From the IMG/VR virus record IMGVR_UViG_3300025687_000001, positions 64,001-128,000 of that record: a DNA stretch of 64,000 bases. The stretch is one strand, 5' to 3'. The notes below the pieces were generated by a model, which worked only from the letters and a program-made list of their open reading frames with translations, was not told the DNA's origin and did no database searches. This document shows, piece by piece, positions 7,138 to 43,981 of the stretch (position 1 is the stretch's first letter; every line of letters starts with the position of its first letter). This DNA comes from a virus. A program made the position numbers and the translations under genes.

Positions 7138-7830
7138 TCACCCCATCTGCGAAGAAATCAGCTTCTTCAGTCTACGCTTCGTGTGCGAGATCTGCCCCGG
7201 CGTGAGCCCCGTCTTGCTCACTAGGTCTTTGGTGGAAAGCACTGGCGCGCCGCCGTACCCAGTAGTGTGCTCAAACACCGTTTGGTCACTGGGGTTTAGG
7301 TCGTAGTACACGAAGTCCAGCAGCCCAGAATCTTCGTCGGTGCCAAACCCATAGGGGATGGGCTGCGACGTGGAAAACTCGTTTCGTTGCTCCGACCTAA
7401 ATCGCGCCACCTCAGCCGGGCTCCACACTAGTTCCCCAGCAAGCTCCTCGTTGGTAGGCTCGCGCCCACTGGATTCTCGCAGACGCTCTTCAGCGTCTAG
7501 AAAGGTCTGGGCCTTAATAGTGCGGTGCTCGGGCATCCGCGCAGGCGAGGAGTGCGTGTAGACGATGCGGCTCAAGCCCTTGAGCTGGTTTGTCACGTGC
7601 GTGTTTAGCGCGGACTTAGAAGGGTTAAAGGTATTGAAAGCGTTAATAGCCAGAAGCTTAGCCTCGGCTCGCACAGCTTCGGGGGCCACCGCCCCGCCAG
7701 ACCACCGGTTCACTTCTTTCTCGATTACCGGAGTCATCTGCTTGAGCAGAGGGGACAGCGTCGTCTTCCCGGGCGCTGCCTGCCATTGTTGCCAGAGCTC
7801 AACGTCCTTTTCTTTTCTAGACATCGCCAT
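7138..7830 (-). CDS. sigma-70 family RNA polymerase sigma factor (FliA/SigB-like)
   Basis: Region 2-like AFNTFNPSKSALNTH, region 3 GREPTNEELAGEL, region 4 HTH LSTKDLVSKTGLTPGQIS. Confidence 0.8.
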   Translation of the reverse strand: MAMSRKEKDVELWQQWQAAPGKTTLSPLLKQMTPVIEKEVNRWSGGAVAPEAVRAEAKLLAINAFNTFNPSKSALNTHVTNQLKGLSRIVYTHSSPARMPEHRTIKAQTFLDAEERLRESSGREPTNEELAGELVWSPAEVARFRSEQRNEFSTSQPIPYGFGTDEDSGLLDFVYYDLNPSDQTVFEHTTGYGGAPVLSTKDLVSKTGLTPGQISHTKRRLKKLISSQMG

Positions 7831-10711: not shown

Positions 10712-11541
10712 TAGTTGAAGCGTCCTACCTCACGCAGAGCACAAAAGATGCCTAGCAGCGTAACTGCCGCCGCGTGGGCTAGCAAGGGGCGCGTGCTGCG
10801 GTCCAGCGAGTCTTCGATTAATTGCACATAGACCTCAGGAACAATGTGCGCCGTAGACCGCAGAGCCGTGCGAGTGAGCTGCACCACCCGTGCTCTCTCA
10901 GCAAGCATGGTTTGAGCAGGCACCGAAGACTTGATGGGACCGGCGTAGACCGATGTCTCGTCAGGCCACGCTAGAGTCATGCAGCCCTCGAAGCGCTCCC
11001 GGTAGACTATCTGCCGTCCTCGACGAGCAGCTAAGGCCTCGTACGCGCCATCAGCAGGATCACTACAAAGACGAGCCAGCAGCGCAACCCTGAAGGTCTC
11101 CACAGCAGCGTTGCTGAACGCCTCTCCCATTGCAGTCTCTAGCGGCGTGGGCGTCGACCCATCGTACTCAGGGTTGGCTCGGGTGGTGTAGCTAAGGGTC
11201 TTGGAGGCAGAGTTGCCGCCAATGTCATCCACGCTGACTTCAACCTCGTACAACGTGTTGTGGGCCAGCAACGCAGTGTTCTGGATGCTGAGCTCGACTA
11301 CTTTGCTATCTCCGTCGTCCCAACTGTCGTAGAAACTGTCGTTCCAAGCACCGGCTTGGAGCGCGCCGTTGATGTACACATCGGTGCCGTTGACCGCTAC
11401 GTTGAGCGTAGCCAGGTCTAGACCCAGATCCCCCACGTCTCCGCGGTCGACTAGCTGGATGCGAAACACGGCTGCGCGGCTGACTCCGCTTGCGCTGTCT
11501 GCTGGGGTGACTGCGGCGATGTAGGGGGCTACGGCGGCCAT
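10711..11541 (-). CDS. Ig-like domain virion protein
   Basis: APYIAAVTPADSASGV..LAHNTLYEVEV..DDIGGN..SYTT resembles an SbsA/Big_5 Ig-like domain. Confidence 0.6.
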   Translation of the reverse strand: MAAVAPYIAAVTPADSASGVSRAAVFRIQLVDRGDVGDLGLDLATLNVAVNGTDVYINGALQAGAWNDSFYDSWDDGDSKVVELSIQNTALLAHNTLYEVEVSVDDIGGNSASKTLSYTTRANPEYDGSTPTPLETAMGEAFSNAAVETFRVALLARLCSDPADGAYEALAARRGRQIVYRERFEGCMTLAWPDETSVYAGPIKSSVPAQTMLAERARVVQLTRTALRSTAHIVPEVYVQLIEDSLDRSTRPLLAHAAAVTLLGIFCALREVGRFN

Positions 11542-11544
11542 GGG

Positions 11545-12684
11545 TTACTTAGAGCCTTTTCCAAACCGAAAAGAAGCTTCTAGCTTCCGTTTAACAGCAG
11601 CCGCACCCTCTACGAGCGTAGCCGCACCCTCTACGAGCGCTGCGGCAGACTCTTCTGTGCGCACAAGCGCTTGAATACTCCGCTTCCGGTTTACCAGGCG
11701 AAGTTGTTCCGCCGTTTCATCCGGAGACAGCCCGCCCTTCTTGTCCTTCTTCTTCTCCAGCTCGCTAAGTCGAGTAGAAATCGCGTTGTTTTCCTGCCTA
11801 AACGAGCAGCCGTCCAACCTCTTTGCTAGCGCTGCCATGTCCATGACCCGCCCCGCGTTTATATCTCTGGTAGCGGCAGGGGAGCCTTTAGTGCAGTCTA
11901 CCTTGCCACGGCCTTTGCGGTTGGGGCGCGGAGGCGGAGCAACGAACGCGGTGCGCGTAAACTGGTCCAAGGTGACGTAATCAACCGAAGGCACTGGAGC
12001 TGCTGCAAATAGGCTGGTGTCCCCGATAAACGCACGCTCCATGCGCTCCAGGTCTGCCTCGCGGCTGGCCCACATGTCATATTCGCTGGAGACAAGGAAC
12101 TCGAAGCTAAACTTCGCCCAATCGTCACTCTGGGCGCTGAGCACGTTGGTCATGCTCAGGATAGCCCCGGTGACCACCTTCCCATTGTAGGCTACCTGTG
12201 CTAAACGCTGCTGGTAGGAAAGCTGAGACCCCCGGAGAACCTGGTGGTACAGAGTATTTAGGGTACTCCGCCAGTTGTCTGTGTAGGTGTTCTCCAGCAC
12301 CCCCGAGAACGAGTAGACGCGAGGCTCCTCTCCAAAGAAGAGGGCGGCGTAGCTATCCCCGTTTAGAGGGATCAGCTGCGTTTTCTCAGTAGCCTTCTCT
12401 ACAACTTCTTGTAGGTAAAAACCTACGTAGGCTCCGCGTTGGAAGCTGGTCGCCGGCGCAGGGAGGGTAGTTAAGTCCCCAGTTAGGTAGAGACGAGCAA
12501 CGCGAAGATCGTTGTGGTTGTCTCGAGCTTCTGTGTAGTCGTACTTACGCGCGGTCAGGGGTCGCTCCGCGTAGACCCCCCTAGCTTCTGTACCCGGACG
12601 GCCGAGCGTGCCTCCGTAGTCGGTGTCCACGTCCCCGGCGATCTCAACGTCCAAACGCCTAGTGAACCAATCAGCCATCTGCAC
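11545..12684 (-). CDS. tail tube initiator/baseplate-associated protein
   Basis: Downstream of tape measure; FFGEEPRVYSFSGVL motif. Confidence 0.45.
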   Translation of the reverse strand: MQMADWFTRRLDVEIAGDVDTDYGGTLGRPGTEARGVYAERPLTARKYDYTEARDNHNDLRVARLYLTGDLTTLPAPATSFQRGAYVGFYLQEVVEKATEKTQLIPLNGDSYAALFFGEEPRVYSFSGVLENTYTDNWRSTLNTLYHQVLRGSQLSYQQRLAQVAYNGKVVTGAILSMTNVLSAQSDDWAKFSFEFLVSSEYDMWASREADLERMERAFIGDTSLFAAAPVPSVDYVTLDQFTRTAFVAPPPRPNRKGRGKVDCTKGSPAATRDINAGRVMDMAALAKRLDGCSFRQENNAISTRLSELEKKKDKKGGLSPDETAEQLRLVNRKRSIQALVRTEESAAALVEGAATLVEGAAAVKRKLEASFRFGKGSK

Positions 12685-21300: not shown

Positions 21301-22092
21301 TTAGCTTCCGAAGTCTAGGAGGTCGTCCCAGCCCTTGGGATCCCACGCCAACTCTTGTACCTTACCCGACTTCTTCACCGTCATGCGGCGCATGGGGTCC
21401 AGATAGCTGTGCGGCAGTACGGTTACCGCCGTACGCTCAACGTTCATGCGGTCGCAGAGCTCGAGCGTGAGCGAGTTTAGCGTGTCTTTCTGCGCCTCAG
21501 TCCAAGGACCGCCCGCGGGCACAGCCAACAGGTCCACGCTGATGGACCCGGTATTGGGAGACGGAGCGCCTTCTGGCAAAAGCTGCGCCGGGGAATCGAG
21601 GCCCGGGAAAGCTTCTTTCCACGCAGCGTACCCCCCAGCGGGGGGCTGCGCAGCCAGGCTGCCACCTAGGGGGTGCGACCAGCGCTGCCAATCTGTACCC
21701 GCGTACAACTGCCGCACATTGGTCTTCCACCCAGCATGCCAGCCTTGTACTCCTAGCGGGAGGATCTGCCAGACGTAGCCGTCCCAGTCGATCAGGAAAT
21801 GCGTGCTTACGCCGTTGCCACTACGCGCGTAGTACCTGCAGGCGTAGCGCGCTACTTCGCGGCAGTCCTTTATGCCCTTGTCAAAGGCCTTCTGGACAAT
21901 CCCCGCTCCAGTCGTGTGCACCACTACAAAGCTAGCCGGGATGGTACGCTTGGAGAAGTCCCGCTCGTCTGGGATGCGCCGGTCGTGGGGAACTGAGGGA
22001 AGCCAGTCAACCATTTGGAGGTCGGGTTTTGGCTCCGGGGGGTTTTGCGGCGTTAGAAGGTCCCGCCAGACTTGGAAGAGTTCGTTGAGCAT
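21301..22092 (-). CDS. N-acetylmuramoyl-L-alanine amidase (Amidase_2 family)
   Basis: VVVHTT, STHFLID, WHAG, NTGSISV, TEAQ, PH..DP motifs. Confidence 0.85.
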   Translation of the reverse strand: MLNELFQVWRDLLTPQNPPEPKPDLQMVDWLPSVPHDRRIPDERDFSKRTIPASFVVVHTTGAGIVQKAFDKGIKDCREVARYACRYYARSGNGVSTHFLIDWDGYVWQILPLGVQGWHAGWKTNVRQLYAGTDWQRWSHPLGGSLAAQPPAGGYAAWKEAFPGLDSPAQLLPEGAPSPNTGSISVDLLAVPAGGPWTEAQKDTLNSLTLELCDRMNVERTAVTVLPHSYLDPMRRMTVKKSGKVQELAWDPKGWDDLLDFGS

Positions 22093-27437: not shown

Positions 27438-27519
27438 GCGAGGGTGGCGGAACTGGTAGACGCACTGGATTTAGGTTCCAGCGACTTTAGTCATGGGGGT
27501 TCGATTCCCCCCTCTCGCA
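27438..27519 (+). tRNA. tRNA-Leu(TAG)
   Basis: Cloverleaf, anticodon arm CTGGA-TTTAGGT-TCCAG, long variable arm. Confidence 0.92.
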
Positions 27520-27525
27520 TACTTA

Positions 27526-27607
27526 GCCCGGGTGGTGGAACTGGTAGACACCGCTGACTTAAACTCAGCCGCAGAAATGCGTGTGGGTTCGATCCCCGCC
27601 CCGGGCA
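27526..27607 (+). tRNA. tRNA-Leu(TAA)
   Basis: GCTGA-CTTAAAC-TCAGC, long variable arm. Confidence 0.92.
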
Positions 27608-27611
27608 CTAA

Positions 27612-27881
27612 ATGACCTTCATTCTCCTAGCACCTGACAATAAAAGAGAACTCGGCGCAGTCCAGGTCCTTAGGGACAGCGACACTCACCACGTCCTGGC
27701 GCTGCGCTTTCATTTAAACCACCCGCCCAGGGTGGTCACCTACTCGCAGCAAAACCTCAAAGACCTACTAGCTGCTCAAGACATTGCTGCTATAATCGCA
27801 GCTGACGCTCTCAGCCTGGGGGGCTACGAGCACGCTCCAAGGATTCTAACCTTGTCTGATACGCGCGTAGAAACGCTATGA
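27612..27881 (+). CDS. hypothetical protein
   Basis: ORF between tRNAs. Confidence 0.45.
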   Translation: MTFILLAPDNKRELGAVQVLRDSDTHHVLALRFHLNHPPRVVTYSQQNLKDLLAAQDIAAIIAADALSLGGYEHAPRILTLSDTRVETL

Positions 27882-28105
27882 TGACGCACTGGGAGCTGGC
27901 GAGGCTAGCGGGGCTGTGGCTGGAAAAGCTGGCCACCGAGCACCCGGAAAAACTCGACGAGTGCGTTGCTATCACCATCCACGACGACTACACTGCTGAC
28001 ATTGCTTTCAAGGTACGTTGGTCAGGGCCCAAGAAGGTCGCCCCGACCCCGGAGCCGAAAGAAACAGAAGAAGCGAGTTCTGTGACAACTGATGAAGGCG
28101 AGTAG
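27878..28105 (+). CDS. hypothetical protein
   Basis: ATGA-coupled; 3' end overlaps tRNA-Val. Confidence 0.45.
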   Translation: MMTHWELARLAGLWLEKLATEHPEKLDECVAITIHDDYTADIAFKVRWSGPKKVAPTPEPKETEEASSVTTDEGE

Positions 28106-28167
28106 CTCAGCGGTAGAGCAGCTCTTTTACGTGGAGCTGGTCGCAGGTTCGACCCCTGTCTCGCCTA
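28096..28167 (+). tRNA. tRNA-Val(TAC)
   Basis: GCTCT-TTTACGT-GGAGC; T arm GGTTCGACCC. Confidence 0.88.
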
Positions 28168-28246
28168 CAACTATGCCAGTCGAACAGCAGGTAAAACCCA
28201 GTGAGGAAGAGAGCTGTCTAGCACTGCTGGGTGCTGGCTTCTTTTA

Positions 28247-28319
28247 GGGGGATTAGCTCAGTTGGGAGAGCAGGAGCTTTGCAAGCTTCAGGTCGTCAGT
28301 TCGATTCTGACATCCTCCA
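28247..28319 (+). tRNA. tRNA-Ala(TGC)
   Basis: GGAGC-TTTGCAA-GCTTC; G3:U70 pair. Confidence 0.92.
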
Positions 28320-28329
28320 CATCTTCTAT

Positions 28330-28402
28330 TGCGGGTTAGAAAAATCAGGTACTTCACCTGGTTCATACCCCGGAGATCTGGGTTCAAATCCCAGGCCCGC
28401 AA
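28330..28402 (+). tRNA. tRNA-Met(CAT), atypical
   Basis: CCTGG-TTCATAC-CCCGG with one mismatch; fMet-like acceptor TGCGGG/CCCGCAA. Confidence 0.75.
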
Positions 28403-28416
28403 CAACAATTCTTTTC

Positions 28417-28426
28417 CTGGTAAAAG
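28417..28426 (+). promoter_or_regulatory. promoter motif CTGGTAAAAG
   Basis: Identical copies at 45265 and 59109. Confidence 0.55.
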
Positions 28427-28430
28427 AAAC

Positions 28431-28725
28431 TGCCAGCAAAGCACTGCTGGCACTAGGGCCGCGCAATGAGCGCTCGCGTTGGACAGAATCCGGTGACGTC
28501 CGCGACCCCGCTGTTTACTCTTGGCTTTCTGCCCACCAAGAACCTGGCAGCCGTGAGGCCCAGGCGGTGAACGATGCGAAATTCCGAGTGGGTGAGAGGC
28601 CCACATCTTCTTCTAAGAAATAGCTGGCCGTTGTGGAGACAATCTCCAGGGAGGAGTAGCGTCAGTTCCCGGATTAAGCTCCCGGGGGCGGGACCTTGAC
28701 CCTTCGGCTGGCGGCGCCTTCTTTA
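28431..28725 (+). ncRNA. candidate multi-branched ncRNA
   Basis: Long-range pairing 28487-28498 with 28660-28675 enclosing several hairpins. Confidence 0.4.
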
Positions 28726-28765
28726 GGCTTGCCCGTCTCATTTTAGATAGGTTAATTTCCACCGC

Positions 28766-29110
28766 ATGACTTTCGACGAATACCAGGAGGTAGCCAGCAC
28801 CACCGCTCGCTACCCAGGCCGCCTTCAGCACAACCCCACCTACCCTGTTCTCGGTCTAAACGGCGAAGCTGGGGAAGTGGCGGAGAAGTTGAAGAAGTTG
28901 TTCCGTGACACGAACTGGACTCCGGGCACCCCGATACCTCACGACGTAAGGGACCTGCTCATCAAAGAGCTGGGAGACGTACTGTGGTACCTCTCCGCCT
29001 GCTGCGACGAGATCGCTGTTACTTTAGATGAAGTGGCGCACGTCAACATCCAGAAGCTCCTCTCCAGGAAGCAACGCGGCGTCATCGGAGGCAGCGGCGA
29101 CAACCGCTAA
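28766..29110 (+). CDS. MazG-like NTP pyrophosphohydrolase
   Basis: LGLNGEAGEVAEKLKK..KELGDVLWY..NIQKL. Confidence 0.9.
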   Translation: MTFDEYQEVASTTARYPGRLQHNPTYPVLGLNGEAGEVAEKLKKLFRDTNWTPGTPIPHDVRDLLIKELGDVLWYLSACCDEIAVTLDEVAHVNIQKLLSRKQRGVIGGSGDNR

Positions 29111-29114
29111 CCCT

Positions 29115-29185
29115 AGGGGCGTCGTCTAACGGTAGGACGCAAGGTTTTGGTCCTTGTTACGTGGGTTCGAATCCTACCGCCCCTG
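29115..29185 (+). tRNA. tRNA-Gln(TTG)
   Basis: CAAGG-TTTTGGT-CCTTG. Confidence 0.92.
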
Positions 29186-29186
29186 C

Positions 29187-29260
29187 CCTCACGTAGCTCA
29201 GCTGGATAGAGCGACGGCCTTCTAAGCCGTGGGTCCCAAGTTCGAATCTTGGCGTGAGGA
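29187..29260 (+). tRNA. tRNA-Arg(TCT)
   Basis: ACGGC-CTTCTAA-GCCGT. Confidence 0.92.
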
Positions 29261-29268
29261 CTAGCCAA

Positions 29269-29341
29269 TCCGCCTTAGCTCAGTTGGTAGAGCAATCGGC
29301 TGTTAACCGATTTGTCGCTGGTTCGAGCCCAGCAGGCGGAG
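29269..29341 (+). tRNA. tRNA-Asn(GTT)
   Basis: ATCGG-CTGTTAA-CCGAT. Confidence 0.93.
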
Positions 29342-29350
29342 CATTCTTTA

Positions 29351-29423
29351 GGGCCTATAGCTCAGTGGTGAGAGCGGCCGGCTCATAACCGGTTGGTCCC
29401 AGGTTCAAGTCCTGGTGGGCCCA
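29351..29423 (+). tRNA. tRNA with CAT anticodon, probably Ile2
   Basis: GCCGG-CTCATAA-CCGGT; GGGCCTA acceptor typical of tRNA-Ile. Confidence 0.85.
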
Positions 29424-29435
29424 AGTAAAAACACC

Positions 29436-30209
29436 ATGGGATACGACATGAGCTTGGTAAACCCGAGCGAAGAACTTCTTCGACTCGAGCAGGACAGCAA
29501 GCGCGAATTCCAAGCGCTGGTAGCCGCCCGAGATATCCTAAAGACCCCAGAAACTAAAGCCATTTTCCAGGACGCTATGGACTACTGGAACAACTGCTAC
29601 TGGGGCACTAAGCGCGGCAACCCCGCGCCTGTAAAGCCGGACTACGCTGACACTGCTAGCACTGAACTCTTTGAAAAGGTCTTAGCTGCGCAAGAAGCGG
29701 TCATCGCGCACAGTAACAAGGGCACGCGCGATCCTACCTACTTCCGCCTGAACGTCTGGGGGATGGGTAAGTACCGCGATGTGATGGAAAAGCTAGGGAT
29801 GATGTACTTAGGCCGGTACACGACACCCAGCTTCGCCGCGTACCCCGGTGACGAGCACTTCGCTGGAGACTACACTGAACCCATCACCGACGAAGGCCGT
29901 AAGTGGCGCGAACACCAGGACATGTGTCTGCACTACAGTCCCCCGGAAGCTGAGGGCCTATTGCCCGGCCACAAGTTTGGCTCCAATGACGGATGGCACG
30001 TCACTACCGACGAGTGCGCTGCTGCGCTGAGGGTTGCCGCGGCACACGGGTGGGACGCAGACAATCCTCCCAGCGAAGAGATGAAAAAGGTGTCTGGCCC
30101 CTTCAACGAGATGGGCGTTCCCGACGCTGATGAGAACACCTACTGGTGGGCGTGGTTGGGCTTCCTGAAGAACGCGCGTGACAACGCGGAAGGGTTTCAG
30201 GTTTACTGA
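29436..30209 (+). CDS. hypothetical phage protein
   Basis: ATG at 29436 (MGYDM) after the tRNA. Confidence 0.65.
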   Translation: MGYDMSLVNPSEELLRLEQDSKREFQALVAARDILKTPETKAIFQDAMDYWNNCYWGTKRGNPAPVKPDYADTASTELFEKVLAAQEAVIAHSNKGTRDPTYFRLNVWGMGKYRDVMEKLGMMYLGRYTTPSFAAYPGDEHFAGDYTEPITDEGRKWREHQDMCLHYSPPEAEGLLPGHKFGSNDGWHVTTDECAAALRVAAAHGWDADNPPSEEMKKVSGPFNEMGVPDADENTYWWAWLGFLKNARDNAEGFQVY

Positions 30210-30307
30210 GCCCTGAACGGTTCGCATCCTACGGGGGACCTGGCGGTGATACCTCGTAGTTGGTCGGGGTAACCCAGCATCGTCTGGGCTATAACCGCCA
30301 TCCCTTT

Positions 30308-30383
30308 GGGGCATTAGCTCAGTTGGTAGAGCAATTGACTTTTAATCTCTTGGTCCAGGGTTCGAGTCCCTGATGCCCCACCA
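30308..30383 (+). tRNA. tRNA-Lys(TTT)
   Basis: Canonical D and T arms, encoded CCA; anticodon stem has two mismatches. Confidence 0.85.
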
Positions 30384-30422
30384 AGAAAACGCGTTACAAG
30401 CGCAACAAGTTCGTCTAAGATT

Positions 30423-30432
30423 CTGGCATAAG
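30423..30432 (+). promoter_or_regulatory. promoter motif CTGGCATAAG
   Basis: Upstream of tRNA-Thr. Confidence 0.55.
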
Positions 30433-30457
30433 TAGGTGTCCTAGGACTCTTGCTTAT

Positions 30458-30530
30458 GCTGGGATAGCTCAGTTGGTAGAGCAGCTGATTTGTAATCAGC
30501 CGGTCGTCAGTTCAAGTCTGACTCTCAGCT
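30458..30530 (+). tRNA. tRNA-Thr(TGT)
   Basis: GCTGA-TTTGTAA-TCAGC. Confidence 0.93.
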
Positions 30531-30644
30531 CTCAACCCCACAACTACGTCCCCTCCCCCGAAGAGCACGGCCAGCCACCGGGGGGCGTAATAGGGTTAAG
30601 GTGGCTTACGAAACCCACAGCTAGGGTAGTCGTGCAGGCTGACT

Positions 30645-30686
30645 GGGGGCGGTTAACTGTGGTGGGTTAACCGCCCCCTTCTTTTT
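30645..30686 (+). terminator. intrinsic terminator
   Basis: 13-bp stem GGGGGCGGTTAAC/GTTAACCGCCCCC plus TTCTTTTT at a convergent junction. Confidence 0.8.
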
Positions 30687-31080
30687 AGCCCGTAAAGAGG
30701 CCCTTGAGGTGGTCCATGCGGGACATCTCCGGCTGGCCGCCCATGGCAGCGCCCGCGCCCATAAGGCCCGCACCACCCAGCGCAGCAGCGCCGCCTAGCG
30801 CTCCAGCCTGCCAGGGGTTGGCCCTGGCCGCCTGCCACATGTCCTTACCAACACCCGCCAGGTAATCACCATGCCCCATGTTCTGCATGGCCTCCGCGCC
30901 CCCAGCCAGGTGCTGCGTCAGCTTCCGCTGATCCCGGAAAGTCGACATGGGCTTCCCCGCCCAATCTTTGATCGACTTACCCATCCCCGCCCAGTTGATG
31001 GCGATCTTCTCCTGCCCCTCAGCAAGGCCAAAATCAATCAGAGCCTGGGCGCACCCAGCGTCATACGCTTCCTTGAACAT
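30685..31080 (-). CDS. putative internal head protein with Gly-zipper
   Basis: KEAYxxG leader, EKIA motif, GALGGAAALGGAG segment. Confidence 0.55.
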   Translation of the reverse strand: MFKEAYDAGCAQALIDFGLAEGQEKIAINWAGMGKSIKDWAGKPMSTFRDQRKLTQHLAGGAEAMQNMGHGDYLAGVGKDMWQAARANPWQAGALGGAAALGGAGLMGAGAAMGGQPEMSRMDHLKGLFTG

Positions 31081-31312
31081 CCTCTACACCTTTCCAAGAG
31101 CTGCACTTGTAAATACCGCTAGCAGCGAAATCATAGCGCACGCAGTAGCCCTGGACACCTGCTCTTACGTCAAAATGTTTGCAGGACATGCAACTCTGCG
31201 CCGGGTCGGGAGCGGGTCCGTAGTTAGGAGCGTCCACCATGGAGCTGGTTTTCTCGATGTACTCGAGTAGAGCTCTGGCTGCTCCGCGGCCGTAGGCTTC
31301 TTTGATGCTCAT
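31061..31312 (-). CDS. HiPIP-like 4-Cys protein
   Basis: APNY..CMSCKHF..C..CSSW. Confidence 0.6.
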   Translation of the reverse strand: MSIKEAYGRGAARALLEYIEKTSSMVDAPNYGPAPDPAQSCMSCKHFDVRAGVQGYCVRYDFAASGIYKCSSWKGVEDVQGSV

Positions 31313-34300
31313 GATAACAGCTCCTTGAGCTCGTCTACTGCAGTGAGTTCTTTGTCTGCGGTGAGGCCATGCCCTGCAAGCCCGATACCCCCAGCGGTGA
31401 GTAGGGTCCCGAGGCCCTTTGGCATTCTACCAAGGTAGTCAACTAGCGCAGACAGCTGCCGCGGAGTCACATTTCGTGTCTGCTTCAGAGCCTCCAGTAG
31501 ACCCTCGGTCTTACGAACCTTATTCAGAGCACTCATACCTTCACGAGTCTCTCGACCTAGCACCCTCCGCGCATAGTCAGCGTTAGGAACCACATCTTTA
31601 GGCTGTGCAAGGTACTCTCGGATGACCTCCGGCAGATCTCTGCGGAGAGCCTTACCCTGCTCATTGTTTAAAATGAGGTTGGCTCCGCCTTGCGTAAACG
31701 GAAGAGACGCCATCCCCGCTAGCCCCAGCCCGCCAGCAACTTCGGGCAGAGAGACGTCCTCCGGGTTAATCTTGCTCGCACCATACACAGCACCGGCGCC
31801 CCCTGCCGCAGCTGCCCCTCGCAGTAGGTTGGGTGCGTGCTTTAGCCACTTTTGGCGACGAGCCTGCCTAGCTAGTAGCTTATCCGCCGACGCCTCAGCG
31901 GCTTCCTGGCTTAAGCCTTTCTCCAGTTCTCGGTCAATAGCGATCTCTCGCAAAGCCTCTTGGCTGGGACGGTACTCAGTAATGGTCTCGTACATATCGT
32001 CCGAGCCAATATCTGACGGGAGGATGGTACCAATAGACTTGCGCTGTCGGGTCGCAGAATCTCGGTCCATCAATCCACCCGGGGCCGTGGTGCAGATACC
32101 CCCTTCACAATTAGCCTCTCGGGCTGCCTGCGCCAACGTCTGATTACTGCGCCCTGTAAGCTTACCGTAAACCTTAGCTACAGGGTCAGGTACAAAAACT
32201 TCCCGCAGCCCAGCACGGATAGCCTTGGGGTTGTTGTAGTGCAGCGCACGTCCTTCTTCATCCGTGAGGGCGTTCATGAATGCTTTTTGATCCGGCGCCA
32301 ATCGGTCCGAGAATCCTTTGCGCGCCTCAGCCGCTCCCCCAGTCCGGTCTTTGCGTCGCAAGATGCGAACGTTGCGATCCGGGCTCATGCCGGACTCGGA
32401 CATCCGACTGATAAGATTCTCCCGCCCCTCTAACGTGTCAATGGCGTTATACCGATCGTACATGAGGTTAGAGTGGATAAAGTCGGACCCACCCATAAAC
32501 CCCTTCATCATGTCCTGCTTGTTCCCCGATAGCCCGGGCCCAGAAAGGACAACGTCCCCGGGCGGCAGTTGCCGAATGAAGGCATCCCAGTTTTCAGTAG
32601 TACTGCCGGGTGTGTGAAGGGGCGCACGCTTATTAGTGATTGCAGCTAGAGCCGGCATCCCTGCTGCCGCAGCCATCAGGCTGTTGCGGATAGCGTGAGA
32701 CTCTTCGTCCTCCGAAGTCTTCTCTCGGTCAGCCACTAACCCGTGCAGCCCAAGTCCCGCGCCTCCCGCCATGAGTGCAGCACCCGGCTTCTTCAGATGC
32801 TTAGCTACGTCTAGTAGGTACGTACTGTACGCTGGGGCGATACGCTTAGCCCCTCGTAGCGTCTCAGCTAGCCCTCGGTGCTTTTTTAGGTCCTGTAGCG
32901 CGTAGGCGTTAGCCATGGTCTCGTCACGCAGAACCCGAAGCGCTCCCTTGAGAGTGTCCCTCTTAGGCGCTGCGTTCATGTCCGTGCGGATAGCCGCCCG
33001 AATCTGATCATCCAGCGTTAGAGCCCCAGACCTGCGGGCTCGATTTTCAAAATCTCGAGCGTGTCCTAGCTCGTGCGCCAGGAACTCCGGGGTGTGCGCC
33101 TGCACTGCCTGCCTACGCGAGTAGTCGTAAGTCGGAGACTCAACCCCCCGGTTCATGGGATGGTTGCGATCTGCCGTAACCCCGAATCCCCCTTCGGGGC
33201 TCACATGTACCAGCCCTCTATCGTTGATGATCTTGCGACCGAAGTCCTGCATGTCAGCTTCGACCTTGGCCTTAGCCTGATCTAAGCTGAACCCTTCGGC
33301 CATGATGTCCCGAAGGCGCTTATCGCCGTACTCATTGATCTGCTTGCGGTAGTTGTTTACCGCAGCCATGCTGAGTGGCTTGTGAAGGAAGGGCACGGCC
33401 CCTGCTGCGCCTAACCCAAGCCCTGCAGCTACCTCGGGTACAGAGACGTCTTCCGGGTTTACCTTGGACAGGCCGTAAATAGCTCCAGCACCGCCCAGAC
33501 CGATGGCTCCGCGAGCGATGTTAGGCGCGTGCCGCAGCAACTTGTCTCGTCGCAGCGCAGATCGCTGCTGCTTTGCTACCTCAGCAATCGCGTCTTCTGT
33601 GGACATGCCGGCTGCGCGCAAATCACGAACAGCACGCGCCTTAGCTTCCTCTGGGTCTGGCGTGTACTCGAGCACCGTCTCCAGGCTGGGGTCGCTGGCA
33701 ATGTCTCTAGGCAACAGGGAGCTGAGGCTCTTGTTCTGCCGAGCCTTGGACGCCGGGTCCATAGTCCCACCAGGAAGAACTGTGCAAACCCCCCCGGCGC
33801 ACCGAACCTCCTCGCCTAGTTGACTAGGAGTCTTAGGCTGCTTGTTGGTAAGCTTCCCCCACAGCTTAGCAACGGGGTCTGGCACCAAGATTTCTCGCAG
33901 CCCACTCTTGACAGACTTGCCTACGCTGTACGTCGGAGCATCTCCGTGCTGGCCGTACATAGACTGTAGGAACTTAGCTCGGTCCTGCTCCCCTGTCAGG
34001 GACGCCATGGCCGGGTCTTTGTGCCGTAGGATCCGCACTCGGCGCTCAGGATTGATACCCGCGTCACCTATGTCACTCATGACATGGCGTCGATCTGGCG
34101 CAATGTCCAGAACCTTGCCGGGTCCCCACCCCACGTTAGCGTGGGTATAGTCAGCAGACCCTTGAGTCGCCGCCACTAGATTGCGGATAGGGTCACCTTT
34201 GTCAGACCCCGAGAGGACGATATCGCCTGGCTTCAAGTTAGCCGTTATGTAGTCAAAGTTGTGGGTGCTGGTACCCGGCGTGTGCAGCGGAGCCCGACGA

Positions 34301-37300
34301 TTAGTAAGCGCAGTAACCGCAGGCACCCCCGCCGCTACCCCCATGAGGGAGTTGCGTAGCGCGTGGGACTCCTCATCTTGCTGCCAGGGCAAGGCAGCAC
34401 CCGTCTTCTCCCCCTCGCGACCTTTGCTGTACTGAACCCCTGCTCCGATGCCACCAATGCCCGCGCCGATACCTAGTTGCGCCAAGAAGGTGTTATACCC
34501 AGACTGCGCTGCGGGCTGCATAGCCCTAGCCACTTCAGGTGGGAGGTGCCCTTTGTCTAACTGCTGAAGAGGAGTCAAGGCGGACATGTCCCCCGCCTCA
34601 ATAGCCTCCCGGACTTTCCTTGAGGCACTGGGAGTACCGAGGTTTCCGCCAGTCTCCATCACAGTAGACACTGGCGTCTGCCCAGTAATGAACTCCAGAG
34701 AGTCCTTCTCCGGCCGTGTAAGCTTACGACTGTAGCCTTTAGGAGCGCGAGCTGCTTCATCCAACAGCTTAGTAGCCCGTCTCCCATGATAAACTCCTCG
34801 GAAGGGCATAGCAGCGCCCTCCAGGAAACCGCGCCCGAGACCCCGCCAACCCCCCTTAGCTCCACCCTTGAAACCCTCGATGAGCCCAGTCACCATGCTA
34901 GGGACCAACAACCCGCCTCCCGCTAATCCTCCAGCAATGCCCACGCCCTGCTTGAGGTTATGCTCTCCCTCAGAGATACCTGCCCGCTGGTTACGTGCCC
35001 CATACTCAGACGTCCAGACGCCAAAGGGGCCCAGACCCGCAGCAAAGTCCTGTCCTAGATTGGTAGGCTTCTCGGACTTCCAGAACGCACTCGTCTTTAC
35101 GCGCGTAAGCAGCCACTTCCCGTCCTTCGTACGCAGCAGCCGCATCTTTCCCTGGTCAGGCACATCGAACTCCACTTTACCTGGCGCAGACGACACCATA
35201 GTGTCCGCGTCAAGTATAGCGTCAACCTTGCCTGCCCCGTACGTTCCCTCCGGGATTTCCCCCGACCACCCCGCGTAGTCCGCTGTGTGGGTAGGCTGAA
35301 GCAAAGCAAGCAGCTTCTGTCGCTTCTCGTCGGGCCACTGAGCTCGAGGCACCGCCCAAGAGTGAGCACGGCTGGTCTCCGGATCAACCAGGCGAAGGTC
35401 CCAGTGCTTTCCCGCGCGGTTTGCGTTGTGGAGCTGGGTGGTTAGGCGCCAGTTGGCGTCTTGGACCTCTGGGATTGGGTGGATTTGGCGGGAGGCGGGG
35501 ATGCCTGGGGCGAATTCTTCGGAGGACTGCTTCTTCCGAAACCAATTGCCCCCACCCCACCGATCTTCATAGTCGCCCTCCTCGAAACCCGCTGCAAGGA
35601 ACGCCTTCCGAGAAGGCTCGTTGCTCGTCTCAATGAACGCAATGCCGTCCCCATGTTTTGCGACGTGCTCCCGGATGGCCTGCGCGGCCAAGCCCTTCCC
35701 TCGGTGCTCCGGCTGAACGTAGATGGCGCCCACCCGGTGCATCCCCGAACCCCTGGACTGGCGCGGAGTGTGGAACCCCACGATCTCACCATCGACTGTG
35801 ATTGGAACCCGAACTCTATCCTTGTCCCTGGGGCGTACGTACCCGCGTAGATAAGGCTCCTGATTAGCCTCGAGGAGGAGTTTGTAAGGGATACCGGGGG
35901 CGAATTCCCCCTGCGGTAACCCTGCCTCCTCCGAGAACTTCTTCAGCTCAGACCTAGCCCATGGTGATTCGACTACGTCGTAGTGTCCGCGAAGCTTATC
36001 CGCCAGGGTGGTCTTACCAGCGGCCACGTCCCCCATGAGGAAGTTGATCTCGGAGGTCTTAGTCCGGAGAAGCTCCGCAAAAGGGGCTCCACCAACAGTT
36101 CGTACCGCGAAGGCAGGGTTGCCCTGAACATCCCTAGCGGGGCGAACTCGGTACTCCCCCAAAGGGGCCTCTAGCTCCCGTCTGAATAGAGGCACCTCAT
36201 ACGTAGGGTTCCTAGTGCTAACAACGCTAGTAGGGTCCGCCGTCCTGTTTGAGTCGCGGACAAACCTTTCGTAATAGGGTCGATCCCATAAATCAGAGGC
36301 CTTGGTTACTGCGTGACTGTGCACCTCCGGGTAACTACCCGCCGCACCAGACCTGGAATACGCAAACAACTTACCATCTACAGGTGCCCAGGATGGCTCC
36401 CCCACAATTCCAGTGGCATACCCCGCCGCTACGTCCGGGTGTCGAGTAGTGAAGACCAACTTACCGCCCTCTTCCGGCAGAGCATTGCCCCTGAAGAGCA
36501 CGTCAGTAGGGCTGCTAGGGTTAGCTAAGATCTCAGCGGACCCTGTACTGGGCAGCAACACCTCGTCCGCTGCCGGCAAGTGCTTCCCCTTAGCTCGCTC
36601 CCGAATAGAGTCAGTAGCTGCCGCTATGTCCCTACGCACTTGATAGGCAGGCTTGCTTCCACTCCATGCATGCGCGCGATAAAGCTCTCTTGCGGCAGAG
36701 TCAGCTCTGGCACCTACCCGCCTGCGTTGCGCGTTACCCTCGATTAGCTCGTCTACAACATCCCCGGCCCCCCGGCCCGGCTTACCGCTCTCTGGAACAC
36801 CAAACCGCCTTTCTAGCGCGCCATACCAGTCCTTGCGCTCCTGCCTAGTAGTAGGGTTCAACAAGTCCGCTATAGCGGCGTTGGACTTAGGCCCCACATC
36901 AGGCCCAGCCGCATGGAGGCGCTTGATCTCCTTAGTAATCCCCGGTCGGACCTCTTCTAATAGAGCTAGTGCTTGTCTGGTGCTTGCTCGCGCAGCGTAC
37001 TTGCTAATAGGAGCCGAGGAGCTCTTCTTAAACTCCCTCCACCTCTCCAACTCCTCCCTCAAACTCTCCGGCACCCCGCCCTCACGCCCAATACGCGCGT
37101 AGATCTCATCCAGGTCAGTAATGCTCGGCTCGCCCTCACGGTGAAGGCCGTACCTATTGAACGTGTAGCCCTTCTCTTTAGCTAGGCGCTTGTCGTGGAT
37201 GATGCCCTTGCCCCGAAGCCACTGAGCTAGCGCGGGCTCGAAGTGTTCCTCAGTGGTCTTGAAGACATCTACGCCAGGCTGCTTGGGCAGGTCAGTGACC

Positions 37301-37977
37301 CCCTCCTTAGGGACCACCAGGAGGTCAAGGTCTTTTGGGTCGGGGTGGCCCCTCCCGGTGGAGCCTACAGTAGCCTGGTAGCGAATTTGGTCTGCTAGGG
37401 ACTCTGGGGCCGCACCACTCTGCTTAGGAAACAGCGAAGTATACCCAGACCTAAAAACCTCGGGCAGCGACCCCACGGTGGCCCCCGCCCCCGCCCCACC
37501 AAGAAGCGCGATCAGCTTGTGCTTGGGGAGCAGCTTTGTGAAGCCCTTGTTGGGGTGAGCTGCTTCCCAAATTGCGCCAGACAACGCCCCTGCTGCCGGC
37601 GCTACCCCTAGGGCTCGGTCCGTTAGCGTCGGCTCCTGCGATCCCGTGTTCCAGAACGCTTTCTTCTCCTCCTGCCCGCCAAACAGCGCCCGCACCGCCA
37701 AAGCTTCCTCGTCGCTGTACCCGCGCTCGGACCCCTTGTGAGCTCCGCCTACCCAGAGCCTGTCAGGGTAGAGATGAACCTGCCCCCGCTCAGTGTGCAG
37801 TCCGTAGTGCGGGCCGCGCTTGGACTCTCCGAAGTGCGCTCGAGGACCGAACTTGAGATGCACCGGTTCGTACTTAGAGCCAGGGCTCCGCTTAGCCGCG
37901 CGCTTCTTCTTGAGGCGCTCGATTTCCGCTATGAACTGTAGGAGCTCGTTCTGAGTCGGGGTACCTTGGTCGTTCAC
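31309..37977 (-). CDS. 2222-aa polyvalent multi-enzyme protein
   Basis: PolX-like GS..DLD and GYTFNRYGL; ART-like FRG..FTT; GNAT V.PEHRGKGLA; LigD phosphoesterase HWDLRL..SWAVP..YGAG; two GDIV..H..C domains; HELGH. Confidence 0.75.
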   Translation of the reverse strand: MNDQGTPTQNELLQFIAEIERLKKKRAAKRSPGSKYEPVHLKFGPRAHFGESKRGPHYGLHTERGQVHLYPDRLWVGGAHKGSERGYSDEEALAVRALFGGQEEKKAFWNTGSQEPTLTDRALGVAPAAGALSGAIWEAAHPNKGFTKLLPKHKLIALLGGAGAGATVGSLPEVFRSGYTSLFPKQSGAAPESLADQIRYQATVGSTGRGHPDPKDLDLLVVPKEGVTDLPKQPGVDVFKTTEEHFEPALAQWLRGKGIIHDKRLAKEKGYTFNRYGLHREGEPSITDLDEIYARIGREGGVPESLREELERWREFKKSSSAPISKYAARASTRQALALLEEVRPGITKEIKRLHAAGPDVGPKSNAAIADLLNPTTRQERKDWYGALERRFGVPESGKPGRGAGDVVDELIEGNAQRRRVGARADSAARELYRAHAWSGSKPAYQVRRDIAAATDSIRERAKGKHLPAADEVLLPSTGSAEILANPSSPTDVLFRGNALPEEGGKLVFTTRHPDVAAGYATGIVGEPSWAPVDGKLFAYSRSGAAGSYPEVHSHAVTKASDLWDRPYYERFVRDSNRTADPTSVVSTRNPTYEVPLFRRELEAPLGEYRVRPARDVQGNPAFAVRTVGGAPFAELLRTKTSEINFLMGDVAAGKTTLADKLRGHYDVVESPWARSELKKFSEEAGLPQGEFAPGIPYKLLLEANQEPYLRGYVRPRDKDRVRVPITVDGEIVGFHTPRQSRGSGMHRVGAIYVQPEHRGKGLAAQAIREHVAKHGDGIAFIETSNEPSRKAFLAAGFEEGDYEDRWGGGNWFRKKQSSEEFAPGIPASRQIHPIPEVQDANWRLTTQLHNANRAGKHWDLRLVDPETSRAHSWAVPRAQWPDEKRQKLLALLQPTHTADYAGWSGEIPEGTYGAGKVDAILDADTMVSSAPGKVEFDVPDQGKMRLLRTKDGKWLLTRVKTSAFWKSEKPTNLGQDFAAGLGPFGVWTSEYGARNQRAGISEGEHNLKQGVGIAGGLAGGGLLVPSMVTGLIEGFKGGAKGGWRGLGRGFLEGAAMPFRGVYHGRRATKLLDEAARAPKGYSRKLTRPEKDSLEFITGQTPVSTVMETGGNLGTPSASRKVREAIEAGDMSALTPLQQLDKGHLPPEVARAMQPAAQSGYNTFLAQLGIGAGIGGIGAGVQYSKGREGEKTGAALPWQQDEESHALRNSLMGVAAGVPAVTALTNRRAPLHTPGTSTHNFDYITANLKPGDIVLSGSDKGDPIRNLVAATQGSADYTHANVGWGPGKVLDIAPDRRHVMSDIGDAGINPERRVRILRHKDPAMASLTGEQDRAKFLQSMYGQHGDAPTYSVGKSVKSGLREILVPDPVAKLWGKLTNKQPKTPSQLGEEVRCAGGVCTVLPGGTMDPASKARQNKSLSSLLPRDIASDPSLETVLEYTPDPEEAKARAVRDLRAAGMSTEDAIAEVAKQQRSALRRDKLLRHAPNIARGAIGLGGAGAIYGLSKVNPEDVSVPEVAAGLGLGAAGAVPFLHKPLSMAAVNNYRKQINEYGDKRLRDIMAEGFSLDQAKAKVEADMQDFGRKIINDRGLVHVSPEGGFGVTADRNHPMNRGVESPTYDYSRRQAVQAHTPEFLAHELGHARDFENRARRSGALTLDDQIRAAIRTDMNAAPKRDTLKGALRVLRDETMANAYALQDLKKHRGLAETLRGAKRIAPAYSTYLLDVAKHLKKPGAALMAGGAGLGLHGLVADREKTSEDEESHAIRNSLMAAAAGMPALAAITNKRAPLHTPGSTTENWDAFIRQLPPGDVVLSGPGLSGNKQDMMKGFMGGSDFIHSNLMYDRYNAIDTLEGRENLISRMSESGMSPDRNVRILRRKDRTGGAAEARKGFSDRLAPDQKAFMNALTDEEGRALHYNNPKAIRAGLREVFVPDPVAKVYGKLTGRSNQTLAQAAREANCEGGICTTAPGGLMDRDSATRQRKSIGTILPSDIGSDDMYETITEYRPSQEALREIAIDRELEKGLSQEAAEASADKLLARQARRQKWLKHAPNLLRGAAAAGGAGAVYGASKINPEDVSLPEVAGGLGLAGMASLPFTQGGANLILNNEQGKALRRDLPEVIREYLAQPKDVVPNADYARRVLGRETREGMSALNKVRKTEGLLEALKQTRNVTPRQLSALVDYLGRMPKGLGTLLTAGGIGLAGHGLTADKELTAVDELKELLS

Positions 37978-42399: not shown

Positions 42400-42708
42400 A
42401 TGCAGCGATTGTGGATGATTGCACAGGCAGATAACGGGTTTACCTGCTCTGACGTAACTGGGTCAACTAGAACGGTGCACGCCGGGGAACCCGCTGAGGC
42501 CTTGGCTGATTTGCTGTTTGAGCACTTTGAGAGCCTGTTCCGAACCAAGCACCGAGGCGGCCTGGTTATTCGCGTAGCGGGGCGTCGTACATCGGAAGAT
42601 GACATCCTGGCAGCCGCCTACGAGGTAATCGACGCCCTGCCTCCGGAACTAAGAAGCCCTGTAGCTCGGGCGCTCAACCTGCTGCAGGGAGTAGACAGCG
42701 ATGCGTGA
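42400..42708 (+). CDS. hypothetical protein
   Basis: ORF overlapping the next start. Confidence 0.5.
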   Translation: MQRLWMIAQADNGFTCSDVTGSTRTVHAGEPAEALADLLFEHFESLFRTKHRGGLVIRVAGRRTSEDDILAAAYEVIDALPPELRSPVARALNLLQGVDSDA

Positions 42709-43981
42709 AGACTTAGTAGCGACTGCTCGCGAGCTGTACGCACGCTACCAAAGCAGCCGAGAAGTAGCGCGCCGTATGGGCGTGCACAGGTCCACGGTCT
42801 CTCGTTGGTTAGCCGGAACGCAGGCCCCCACAGGTCCCACACAGACCGCAGATTCCTCGCAGCGCAAAGAGCTAAAAGACAGCATCGAAAACGGCGTACG
42901 CACTATTGAGTCCAACGATGTAGCTACGCTCGAGGACCTCTTGGCGGAGGCTAAGGTCGACCTGGATGAGTGGTTGGTGGTCAAATACAACGTCGGCTAC
43001 CACGTCGTAACCATCAAGGCCAAGCAGGCTGACGGTACACACAAACTCATCAAATCTAGGAACCCTAAAATCAACGCGGTCCTAGAGCGCCGTCCCTCCT
43101 TCTTTGCCCCTGTTGTACGACCTGTAACACCACTAAAGCGCCGTGCAGTCCCGACCACTCCTGACGGAGTGGCACTAATTCTCCCGGACTCCCAGCACGG
43201 TTTTCGCCGCAAACCTGGCGGAGAGTTGGACCCTCTGCACGATGTACGCGCGTGCGACGTAGCCCTGCAGACCGCGGAGTTGCTTCAGCCGGATGAAATC
43301 GTGCTCTTGGGTGACATGTTGGATCTAGCCCCGTGGAGTTCGTACGCGCAGGAGCCCGAGCTCAAGTACACTACGCAACCCGCTATCGAGGCTCTCGCTG
43401 CCTGGCTGGGCGGCTTGAGGAAAGCGTGCCCCTCTGCGAAAATCACGTACCTCGAGGGCAACCATGAGCACCGAATCATTAAGAAACTCAACGACGTACA
43501 TGACGAAGCCTCTACTCTCCGCGGACCTGACTCAGACCTGCCTCTTCTTTCCATCCCCTATTTACTATCTCTCAGCTCCTTGGATATCGACTATGTCGGA
43601 CCGTACGGAGCTAGCTACTGGCTCTGGGGGGTTAGAATTCATCACGGCAATGTGGTCCGTGCACGCGGTGGGGACACCGCGGGGGCAATGTTAGCTCGAG
43701 CTACACACAGCCAGATCGTAGGGCACATCCATCGCCGTGAGGTGGCCTCCCGACGCATACGCACCGAGCACGGGCCGCAGACTGTTACAGCCCTAAGCCC
43801 TGGTTGCTTATGCCGGGTGGACGGCGCAGTGCCCCACAAGCAGGGGGCGGAGGTAGACTGGCAGCAGGGAATGGCGCTGGTCTACAGGCACGAAACTCGT
43901 GCTCAGTCTGTGCAACTCGTACCTATCAACGACGGCGTCGCGTACGTCCATGGGCACAAAATTGAATCCAAAAACGATTAG
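42701..43981 (+). CDS. HTH plus calcineurin-like metallophosphoesterase
   Basis: HTH REVARRMGVHRSTVSRWL; DxH, GD..D, GNHE, HG, GHIH. Confidence 0.85.
   Translation: MREDLVATARELYARYQSSREVARRMGVHRSTVSRWLAGTQAPTGPTQTADSSQRKELKDSIENGVRTIESNDVATLEDLLAEAKVDLDEWLVVKYNVGYHVVTIKAKQADGTHKLIKSRNPKINAVLERRPSFFAPVVRPVTPLKRRAVPTTPDGVALILPDSQHGFRRKPGGELDPLHDVRACDVALQTAELLQPDEIVLLGDMLDLAPWSSYAQEPELKYTTQPAIEALAAWLGGLRKACPSAKITYLEGNHEHRIIKKLNDVHDEASTLRGPDSDLPLLSIPYLLSLSSLDIDYVGPYGASYWLWGVRIHHGNVVRARGGDTAGAMLARATHSQIVGHIHRREVASRRIRTEHGPQTVTALSPGCLCRVDGAVPHKQGAEVDWQQGMALVYRHETRAQSVQLVPINDGVAYVHGHKIESKND

Follow-up and report, generated by a model that had tools for sequence, protein, structure and literature searches.

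A giant polyvalent-type protein of an uncultured phage, with a duplicated and probably membrane-bound C-terminal unit and exchangeable enzyme cargo

A single giant gene of an uncultured phage probably encodes a single-chain, membrane-inserting polyvalent protein built on a chassis common to its relatives, a reading that we favor with moderate confidence. The gene, P0001, lies in a stretch of 64,000 nucleotides (the window; positions 64,001 to 128,000 of the IMG/VR virus record IMGVR_UViG_3300025687_000001), for which a prior sequence-only reading had proposed a giant polyvalent protein with repair, modification and protease domains. The chassis would consist of a His-rich N-terminal domain with Gly-zippers, then replaceable enzyme cargo and then a C-terminal membrane unit. 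In this unit a permuted papain-fold Cys enzyme would be combined with Gly-zipper hairpins and, in the ancestral form, with a minimal HExxH...E zincin; the unit is duplicated in tandem in this phage. The cargo here appears to have grown to a PolX-like nucleotidyltransferase, a region of ~300 amino acids (aa), a dead kinase stub, a GNAT acetyltransferase and an intact LigD-type phosphoesterase. Relatives of the protein carry swapped cargo, and the catalytic residues are conserved.

The gene is well supported as a real frame. The virus record that holds it is complete (160,861 bp with direct terminal repeats). Assemblies from JGI, ENA and Logan all yield the protein at identical length, with 0-3 differences and on contigs that reach 160 kb, which excludes both an assembly artefact and a frame left open by chance. 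The GTG start is confirmed by two relatives from a length-relaxed search, P0002 (917 aa, encoded on a 142-kb contig) and P0003 (1,106 aa), the starts of which align with it. The domain order of the sequence-only reading, with its coordinates converted to residues, agrees with the tool matches, and the Gly-rich membrane segments that it had seen were found by a hydropathy scan of P0001 as Gly/Ala-rich hydrophobic segments at ten places. When GenBank phages were searched at the DNA and protein levels with the gene, P0001, P0041 and P0005, nothing beyond GNAT-level matches came back. No match was obtained from IMG/VR scans with A1, P0002, P0004 and residues 180-645 as queries, nor from a GTDB genome scan with P0002, and a metagenome scan with P0002 gave one contig of 6.4 kb with uninformative flanks. 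All features are listed in Table 1.

The C-terminal unit occurs twice in the protein. Residues 1200-1530 align with residues 1756-2094 at 45% identity (E 3e-80), and the alignment with P0002 and P0003 extends the repeated unit to the protein end. An amphipathic helix lies ahead of each core, and Gly/Ala-rich hydrophobic hairpins come after it; the AlphaFold2 (AF2) model of copy 2 has a mean predicted local distance difference test score (pLDDT) of 76.3. The core has a papain-like alpha/beta fold in common with 3kw0 and 2if6 at 8-14% identity, and in fold it matches the permuted YiiX/YaeF group, as opposed to the canonical P60 wall amidases. The catalytic His stands N-terminal to the Cys, which is the circularly permuted order, and the signature is kept across the unit family (His80 39/39, Tyr159 39/40, Cys207 40/40 and Ser/Thr208 40/40). 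In copy 1 these columns are the His in DYTH, the Tyr in PTY and the Cys-Thr in GGVCT. A His/Tyr/Cys signature is carried by the permuted enzymes described by Xu et al. (PMC3142127). The giant protein thus shares the fold and the His/Tyr/Cys-Ser residues with YaeF/YiiX-like proteins such as B. cereus BcPPNE (3kw0), E. coli YiiX (2if6) and poxvirus G6R/OPG091 (PF05708, MEROPS C92; PMC3142127). Unlike in those proteins, the third polar residue is insecurely placed and the core is duplicated, within a chain of 2,222 aa that also holds an amphipathic helix, Gly-zipper hairpins and a zincin. PF05708 finds nothing in the genome at E <= 10 and does not appear in the Pfam scans, so the unit is a structural relative in the permuted group and not a PF05708 member; the Pfam scan of the unit proteins gave no family match over the unit.

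When 1.84 billion representatives were searched exhaustively by profile, ~50 proteins with the unit were recovered. Most are stand-alone proteins of 340-600 aa, which occur in uncultured viruses; others carry the unit twice in tandem, and in others again it is joined to a GNAT, a kinase or an N-terminal HExxH region. The HELGH segment (~115 aa) is present only in copy 1 of P0001 and absent from copy 2 and from P0002. Because P0004 (545 aa) and P0005 (582 aa) carry the full copy 1 layout, with LHELGHAED and, 40-50 residues on, (D/E)ETxANRNA, the zincin would have belonged to the ancestral unit and dropped out of copy 2 and P0002. One unit-family member matches PF04298 at 1.9e-4. The zincin proposed from the letters alone is a candidate: HELGH plus (D/E)ETxAN is kept in P0001, P0004 and P0005, but the MPTase-PolyVal model PF18818 does not match it. 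The two NlpC/P60 regions proposed there are both permuted papain-fold cores, but they are not separate domains: they belong to one duplicated unit, of which the zincin is a part.

The label protease for these NlpC/P60 regions is probably wrong, since cores of the permuted YiiX/YaeF type belong to a group tied to lipids (PMC3142127, PMC12994826). YiiX has a hydrophobic S1 pocket with a bound fatty acid, and lipid or acyl-amide substrates have been proposed for it (Xu et al., PMC3142127). A 2026 study found the permuted type VI secretion system (T6SS) effector Tox-Act1 to be a phospholipase on phosphatidylglycerol (PG) and phosphatidylethanolamine (PE), and summarized the view that canonical NlpC/P60 enzymes cut peptidoglycan while the permuted ones act on lipids (PMC12994826). 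By this analogy, the C-terminal unit is probably a membrane-bound, lipid-directed Cys enzyme with a minimal zincin; such an activity fits better than a protease or a wall amidase because an amphipathic helix and hydrophobic hairpins flank the cores. Tox-Act1 and S. aureus LnsA (PMC12994826, PMC7387801) are likewise permuted papain-fold Cys enzymes at the membrane, Tox-Act1 in a conflict setting; the likeness is a functional analogy only, and the delivery route differs.

The opposite end of the protein is formed by a His-rich domain that is modeled (pLDDT ~95) with about seven strands between two helices. Across 28 sequences E37, G44, H48, G50, H57 and H68 never vary and H40 hardly does, a pattern suggestive of metal binding or catalysis. 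This genome has a single copy of the domain. Elsewhere it sits at the N-terminus, in the middle or at the C-terminus of other proteins, where its fusion partners include InPase (PF18823), NUDIX, SNF2 helicase, LigD Prim-Pol, LigD phosphoesterase, HD, GNAT and P-loop NTPases, and small proteins with this domain also bear Gly-zipper tails. Judged from these sequences, residues 10-105 are an uncharacterised hub domain fused to many enzyme types. Profiles of this domain and of the C-terminal unit found nothing meaningful among the PDB sequences, and the fold searches with a 645-aa N-terminal model were filled by the helical hairpin 399-468, so they did not probe the domain. A kinship with the phosphoesterase domain was considered and rejected, the hhalign match having been traced to one alignment member that itself bears LigD_N.

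Two cargo domains, both already named by the sequence-only reading, are securely identified. The GNAT matches PF00583 at residues 721-801 with 27.4 bits (cut-off 20.7; 4.4e-6), and its acetyl-CoA motif (R/Q-x-x-G-x-G/A) is kept as RGKGLA in the translation. It is bounded by direct repeats of 20 nt that are 90% identical and spaced by 390 nt. The LigD-type 3'-phosphoesterase matches PF13298 (LigD_N) at residues 848-919 with 42.8 bits (cut-off 31.1; 6.5e-11), as well as TIGR02777 (8.8e-12; 45.1 bits, below the 144-bit equivalog cut-off) and the structure 3p4h (E 3.6e-9 over residues 844-958), with 3p43 and 3n9b also matched. H850, H858, D860 and R862, together with the His and Tyr of PTHTADY, are aligned to the corresponding residues of 3n9b, 3p4h and 3p43, the PTHTADY segment lying opposite EDHPLDY of 3n9b. 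The residues of 3n9b opposite the first four are taken by us to be H42, H48, D50 and R52, and the metal-binding and catalytic roles of the aligned residues are presumably those of the P. aeruginosa enzyme. The phosphoesterase looks active because its catalytic residues align with those of solved enzymes. It resembles the phosphoesterase of P. aeruginosa LigD (3n9b) and the stand-alone archaeal enzymes (3p4h, 3p43) in these matches and residues; unlike in LigD, no ligase or Prim-Pol is attached to it, and it lies inside a phage multi-domain protein.

The remaining cargo is less clear. Residues 205-220 (GSTGRGHPDPKDLDLL) hold the signature of the Pol-beta superfamily (GSTGRG-x5-DLDLL), followed by VDVF at 235. 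Residues 264-297, with DKRLAKEKGYTFNRYGL, match DNA_pol_B_thumb (PF14791) at 14.9-17.3 bits (E 7.2e-4 genome-wide), under the cut-off of 25 bits, and such weak thumb matches are common in control genomes. The PolX palm model PF14792 does not match the giant protein and the AF2 model is unreliable over this region; its look-alikes by language model are phage NTP_transf_2/Polbeta clusters (0.92-0.95). The PolX-like call thus stands as far as the GS..DxD motif goes, but the palm has no match and the thumb falls below its cut-off. The region is likely a Pol-beta-fold transferase; that it is a true family-X polymerase is uncertain, and it may be a minimal nucleotidyltransferase instead of a polymerase. 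The GS...DxD palm motif followed by a thumb-like EKGYTFNRYGL resembles minimal family-X polymerases such as Pol X of African swine fever virus, as does the lack of an 8-kDa or fingers domain, but the region in the giant protein is far shorter, with ~18 residues from DxD to the next acidic strand.

The ADP-ribosyltransferase-like region of the sequence-only reading was not confirmed. Strings seen by eye (LFRG at 494, FTT at 509, YEV at 593) have no hidden Markov model match to ART-PolyVal (PF18760), the language-model lead is at 0.83 with ART-PolyVal in 22% of the members of that cluster, and the pLDDT is below 50. No homologues were detected for residues 105-645 by word-based search or for residues 180-645 by the IMG/VR scan. 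The P-loop remnant, by contrast, was called exactly right: INFLMGDVAAGKTTLADKLRGHYDVVES of P0001 shows 84% identity, over 32 aa, to the first part of the AAA_18 kinase of P0003, and beyond HYDVVES the likeness is lost. P0002 and P0003 have the whole AAA_18 domain, whereas P0001 has no Pfam AAA_18 match.

Comparison with P0002 and P0003 reveals how the protein has been rearranged. The first ~100 residues are common to all three proteins at 67% identity, and P0002 and P0003 hold one copy of the C-terminal ~460 residues at ~41% identity to P0001. Between these ends they carry a DUF6036-like nucleotidyltransferase and the complete AAA_18 kinase, and P0003 alone has a GNAT. The profile of the P0002-type nucleotidyltransferase fails to match P0001, so the transferases of P0001 and P0002 are different cargo. 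P0003 (L008:3073-6393) equals P0002 plus a GNAT insert of 189 aa bounded by a direct repeat of 30 aa, LEMKRRLNRPKDQKDIRYLLRNLEGKKTAE, which looks like a fresh cassette insertion. Since the cargo differs among relatives and the GNATs are flanked by repeats, the family keeps both ends and swaps the cassettes in the middle. The phosphoesterase and both papain-fold copies have intact catalytic residues and the GNAT keeps its motif, despite 55% divergence between the unit copies.

We also observed large proteins that adjoin the unit or are fused to it (L001:5453-9901 on the + strand, P0116, P0136 and L002:4527-6929). They have a SWIM-like CxC...CxH, a His-rich segment HIHSHPE.WTMHED.HP, an HExxH and a C-terminal region ending in ..MEMNP.ER, and appear to be further uncharacterised multi-domain phage proteins.

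The classification as a phage polyvalent-type protein is upheld by several unrelated enzyme domains in one chain, by the swapping of cargo among relatives and by the typical partners of the N-terminal domain. The gene is encoded by a mobile element, i.e. a complete virus record with Baseplate_J, a tRNA cluster and an endolysin, and its product joins disparate activities (GNAT, LigD-type phosphoesterase, two papain-fold domains, a Pol-beta-type nucleotidyltransferase motif and a zincin motif). The strongest support comes from the partner set of the N-terminal domain, because InPase, SNF2 and GNAT are listed as polyvalent-protein domains by Iyer, Burroughs, Anand, de Souza and Aravind (2017; PMC5512222). 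The proteins of that study, e.g. phage P1 DdrB/DarB and the N4 virion RNA polymerase, likewise join many unrelated enzyme domains, their repertoire includes the GNAT, Pol-beta nucleotidyltransferase, kinase and zincin-type peptidase seen in the giant protein or its relatives, and they show the same accretion and swapping of domains. The combination found here is absent from that paper, the text of which has no NlpC, LigD or Pol X, as the sequence-only reading had suspected of described proteins in general. Unlike those proteins, P0001 matches neither of the PolyVal models for MPTase and ART, its conserved N-terminal domain and membrane-anchored unit are outside Pfam and no virion gene is adjacent; the same text uses no transmembrane term.

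We propose the following scenario for how such a protein would work. It would insert into the host inner membrane through its Gly-zippers, most likely at or just after genome entry, and there the permuted papain-fold units may attack acyl or lipid linkages, as the analogy to YiiX, LnsA and Tox-Act1 suggests. The zincin, the Cys enzyme or both may cut the chain. The soluble cargo could heal damaged 3' ends of nucleic acids with its phosphoesterase and nucleotidyltransferase, joined by a kinase in the relatives, and the GNAT would acetylate a target, so that the cargo would help the phage against host nucleases. Put more boldly, the N-terminal domain and the membrane unit would be an undescribed phage delivery chassis, in which a lipid-cleaving, self-processing module breaches or anchors in the inner membrane while exchangeable cassettes enter with the genome to undo nuclease damage. 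The cassettes here would be an end-healing set of phosphoesterase and minimal PolX-like transferase, to which the relatives add a kinase. We offer this bolder version as speculation that may well fail. Capsid-carried enzymes and membrane-inserting proteins that are ejected with the DNA are known from phages, such as T4 Alt and the T4 internal proteins and T7 gp14/15/16, to which no sequence or fold relationship was found; nor does the giant protein show signs of a cleaved capsid-targeting signal. Virion association of the giant protein is plausible, and we would hypothesize packaging, ejection and self-cleavage.

Several observations weigh against the reading of a membrane-inserting polyvalent protein, or against its delivery with the virion. 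The lipid activity is an analogy drawn from distant structural relatives at 8-14% identity. Models for Ku, ATP-dependent DNA ligase and RNA ligase have no match in the genome, which leaves the repair pathway incomplete, and therefore any end-healing would depend on sealing enzymes of the host. Part of the cargo is in decay, as the kinase stub shows. P0001 has no fusion to a MuF or portal domain, the MPTase-PolyVal and ART-PolyVal models do not match, and the giant gene lies ~14 kb from Baseplate_J with the endolysin, the tRNA cluster and other genes in between. Almost none of the neighbors in related loci could be named by PHROGs. In one of these loci, L004, a long co-directional operon holds the unit gene, with homologues of the genes at 11545-12684 and 7138-7830 of the window on its two sides, the latter (33% identity, E 3e-33) being 1.5 kb downstream of the unit gene; this synteny with the tail region is weakened because the marker 7138-7830 encodes a sigma factor, and we rejected it as a tail-gene marker on account of its PF04539 match.

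An alternative hypothesis could be that the same architecture is no passenger of the virion and is made in the infected cell, as a membrane-anchored hub for repair and modification or as a remodeller of the envelope, e.g. in superinfection exclusion or in preparation for lysis. We regard this as a serious rival, if unlikely on balance. The location of the giant gene outside any recognisable tail or baseplate block, its start 43 bp from a divergent gene for a DNA-binding protein with regulatory genes adjacent, and the lack of any fusion to a virion domain all fit it, and the many hydrophobic segments would be awkward to package in a capsid. However, known phage ejection proteins also insert into membranes, and the stand-alone units lie in long, late-looking operons. 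Moreover, the partners of the N-terminal domain (InPase, SNF2, NUDIX and LigD domains) match the repertoire of injected polyvalent proteins (PMC5512222).

It is improbable, in our estimate, that P0001 is a structural tail or ejection protein of the tape-measure or pilot type, with papain-fold domains that serve as peptidoglycan amidases to open the wall and with the rest as add-ons. The NlpC/P60 superfamily does include wall amidases, Gly-rich helical segments like those of P0001 are seen in tape-measure and ejection proteins, and the L004 unit lies between homologues of tail-region genes of this phage; yet in fold the domains match the permuted YiiX/YaeF group, which is tied to lipids, the tail block has its own proteins of 1,257 aa and 964 aa, the tape-measure proteins among the low-ranking BFVD rows have probabilities of 0.02-0.2, and the phage has a separate amidase endolysin. 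Still harder to accept is a mosaic of illegitimate recombination with little present function and most domains decaying: the 32-aa kinase stub, the loss of the zincin from unit copy 2, the frequent rearrangement seen in the repeat-flanked cassettes and the absence of detectable homologues for residues 105-645 would suit it, but the frame is open over 6.7 kb, the phosphoesterase residues, the GNAT motif and the His/Tyr/Cys of both cores are intact at 55% divergence of the copies, and the unit family is conserved in many viruses.

The membrane-inserting polyvalent protein that we prefer would be of interest in several ways. Polyvalent proteins are thought to be the first strike of a phage on host defence, and few have been tested. 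Two uncharacterised conserved blocks, i.e. the His-rich hub domain and the membrane unit of permuted papain fold and minimal zincin, can be studied separately, and a LigD-type end-healing enzyme is placed in an effector-like context of a phage. The repeat-flanked GNAT cassettes and the kinase stub catch the exchange of cargo in the act. If the unit does act on lipids, phages would use a membrane phospholipase or acyl-amidase in parallel to the lipid toxins of the T6SS.

Table 1. Features of the giant gene and its surroundings, in window coordinates
Feature	Position	Strand	Basis or remark
Giant gene P0001	31309..37977	-	single uninterrupted frame, 2,222 aa, GTG start
Conserved His-rich N-terminal domain (aa 10-105)	37663..37950	-	AF2 model; no Pfam family
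First Gly/Ala-rich hydrophobic segments (aa 118-176)	37450..37626	-	hydropathy scan
PolX-like Pol-beta-superfamily nucleotidyltransferase, likely (aa 195-300)	37078..37395	-	motif and weak thumb match
Beta-rich region, earlier called ART-like (aa 486-636)	36070..36522	-	motif-like strings by eye
Truncated P-loop kinase stub (aa 640-671)	35965..36060	-	Walker A GDVAAGKTT at 649
Direct repeat copy 2, N-terminal GNAT flank	35888..35907		encodes EFAPGIP (aa 691)
GNAT acetyltransferase cassette (aa 698-820)	35518..35886	-	PF00583, FR47, phrog_1249
Direct repeat copy 1, C-terminal GNAT flank	35498..35517		encodes EFAPGIP (aa 821)
LigD-type 3'-phosphoesterase domain (aa 841-961)	35095..35457	-	PF13298, TIGR02777, PDB 3p4h/3p43/3n9b
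Gly-zipper hydrophobic segments and linker (aa 1008-1184)	34426..34956	-	hydropathy; uncharged stretches 1010-1036, 1152-1184
C-terminal unit copy 1 (aa 1200-1755)	32713..34380	-	amphipathic helix, permuted papain-fold core, Gly-zipper hairpin, minimal zincin, terminal Gly-zipper
Permuted papain-fold core copy 1 (about aa 1226-1440)	33658..34302	-	YiiX/YaeF-type; placed by alignment to copy 2
Minimal zincin (aa 1560-1700)	32878..33300	-	HELGH at 1635, ETMAN at 1686
C-terminal unit copy 2 (aa 1756-2222)	31312..32712	-	without zincin segment
Permuted papain-fold core copy 2 (aa 1782-2004)	31966..32634	-	YiiX/YaeF-type
83-aa gene, Cys-rich body	31061..31312	-	ATGA overlap with giant gene stop, translationally coupled
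131-aa gene, Gly-zipper tail, last of operon	30685..31080	-	same leader as 83-aa gene
GC-rich hairpin, 14-bp stem	30645..30678		between giant-gene operon and convergent tRNA cluster
Eleven tRNA genes (Leu x2, Val, Ala, Met x2, Gln, Arg, Asn, Lys, Thr)	27438-30531	+	convergent with giant-gene operon
263-aa amidase/endolysin	21301-22092	-	PHROG amidase and endolysin families, 2e-9
230-aa Sigma-70 region 3 protein	7138-7830	-	PF04539, 1.5e-7; in tail/baseplate block just upstream of Baseplate_J
Baseplate_J gene	4620-6257	-	same strand as giant gene

The giant gene heads a short operon with two small genes that are translationally coupled to it, an arrangement that speaks for the preferred reading. 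The products of the two small genes have in common the leader (F/I)(L)K(E/Q)AY..G...AL..(F/A)G, with unrelated bodies that are Cys-rich or of Gly-zipper type. The leader is found on four more small proteins of this phage (genome positions 50740, 150531, 156440 and 156797, - strand), and no sigma-70-like promoter was found around the operon. Elsewhere in the window, the match of the 263-aa protein to amidase and endolysin PHROGs indicates that the phage has a separate lysis enzyme, and the protein with Sigma-70 region 3 may be a phage late sigma factor.

Stand-alone or fused units are held by five IMG/VR contigs of 36-190 kb, and the stand-alone units of L003-L005 lie in long co-directional operons, a context that is only suggestive of virion delivery. 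In L003 the unit gene is flanked by genes at 7530-8732 and 11104-11829 that are similar to the 1,448-aa protein of this phage (genome 20389-24735), and in L005 it comes after homologues of the genes at genome 146.9-157.3 kb. Outside these subjects, we observed a 426-aa protein with an N-terminal helix-turn-helix and a metallophosphoesterase at 42701-43981 of the window (+ strand), which matches phrog_20266 at 2.9e-51.

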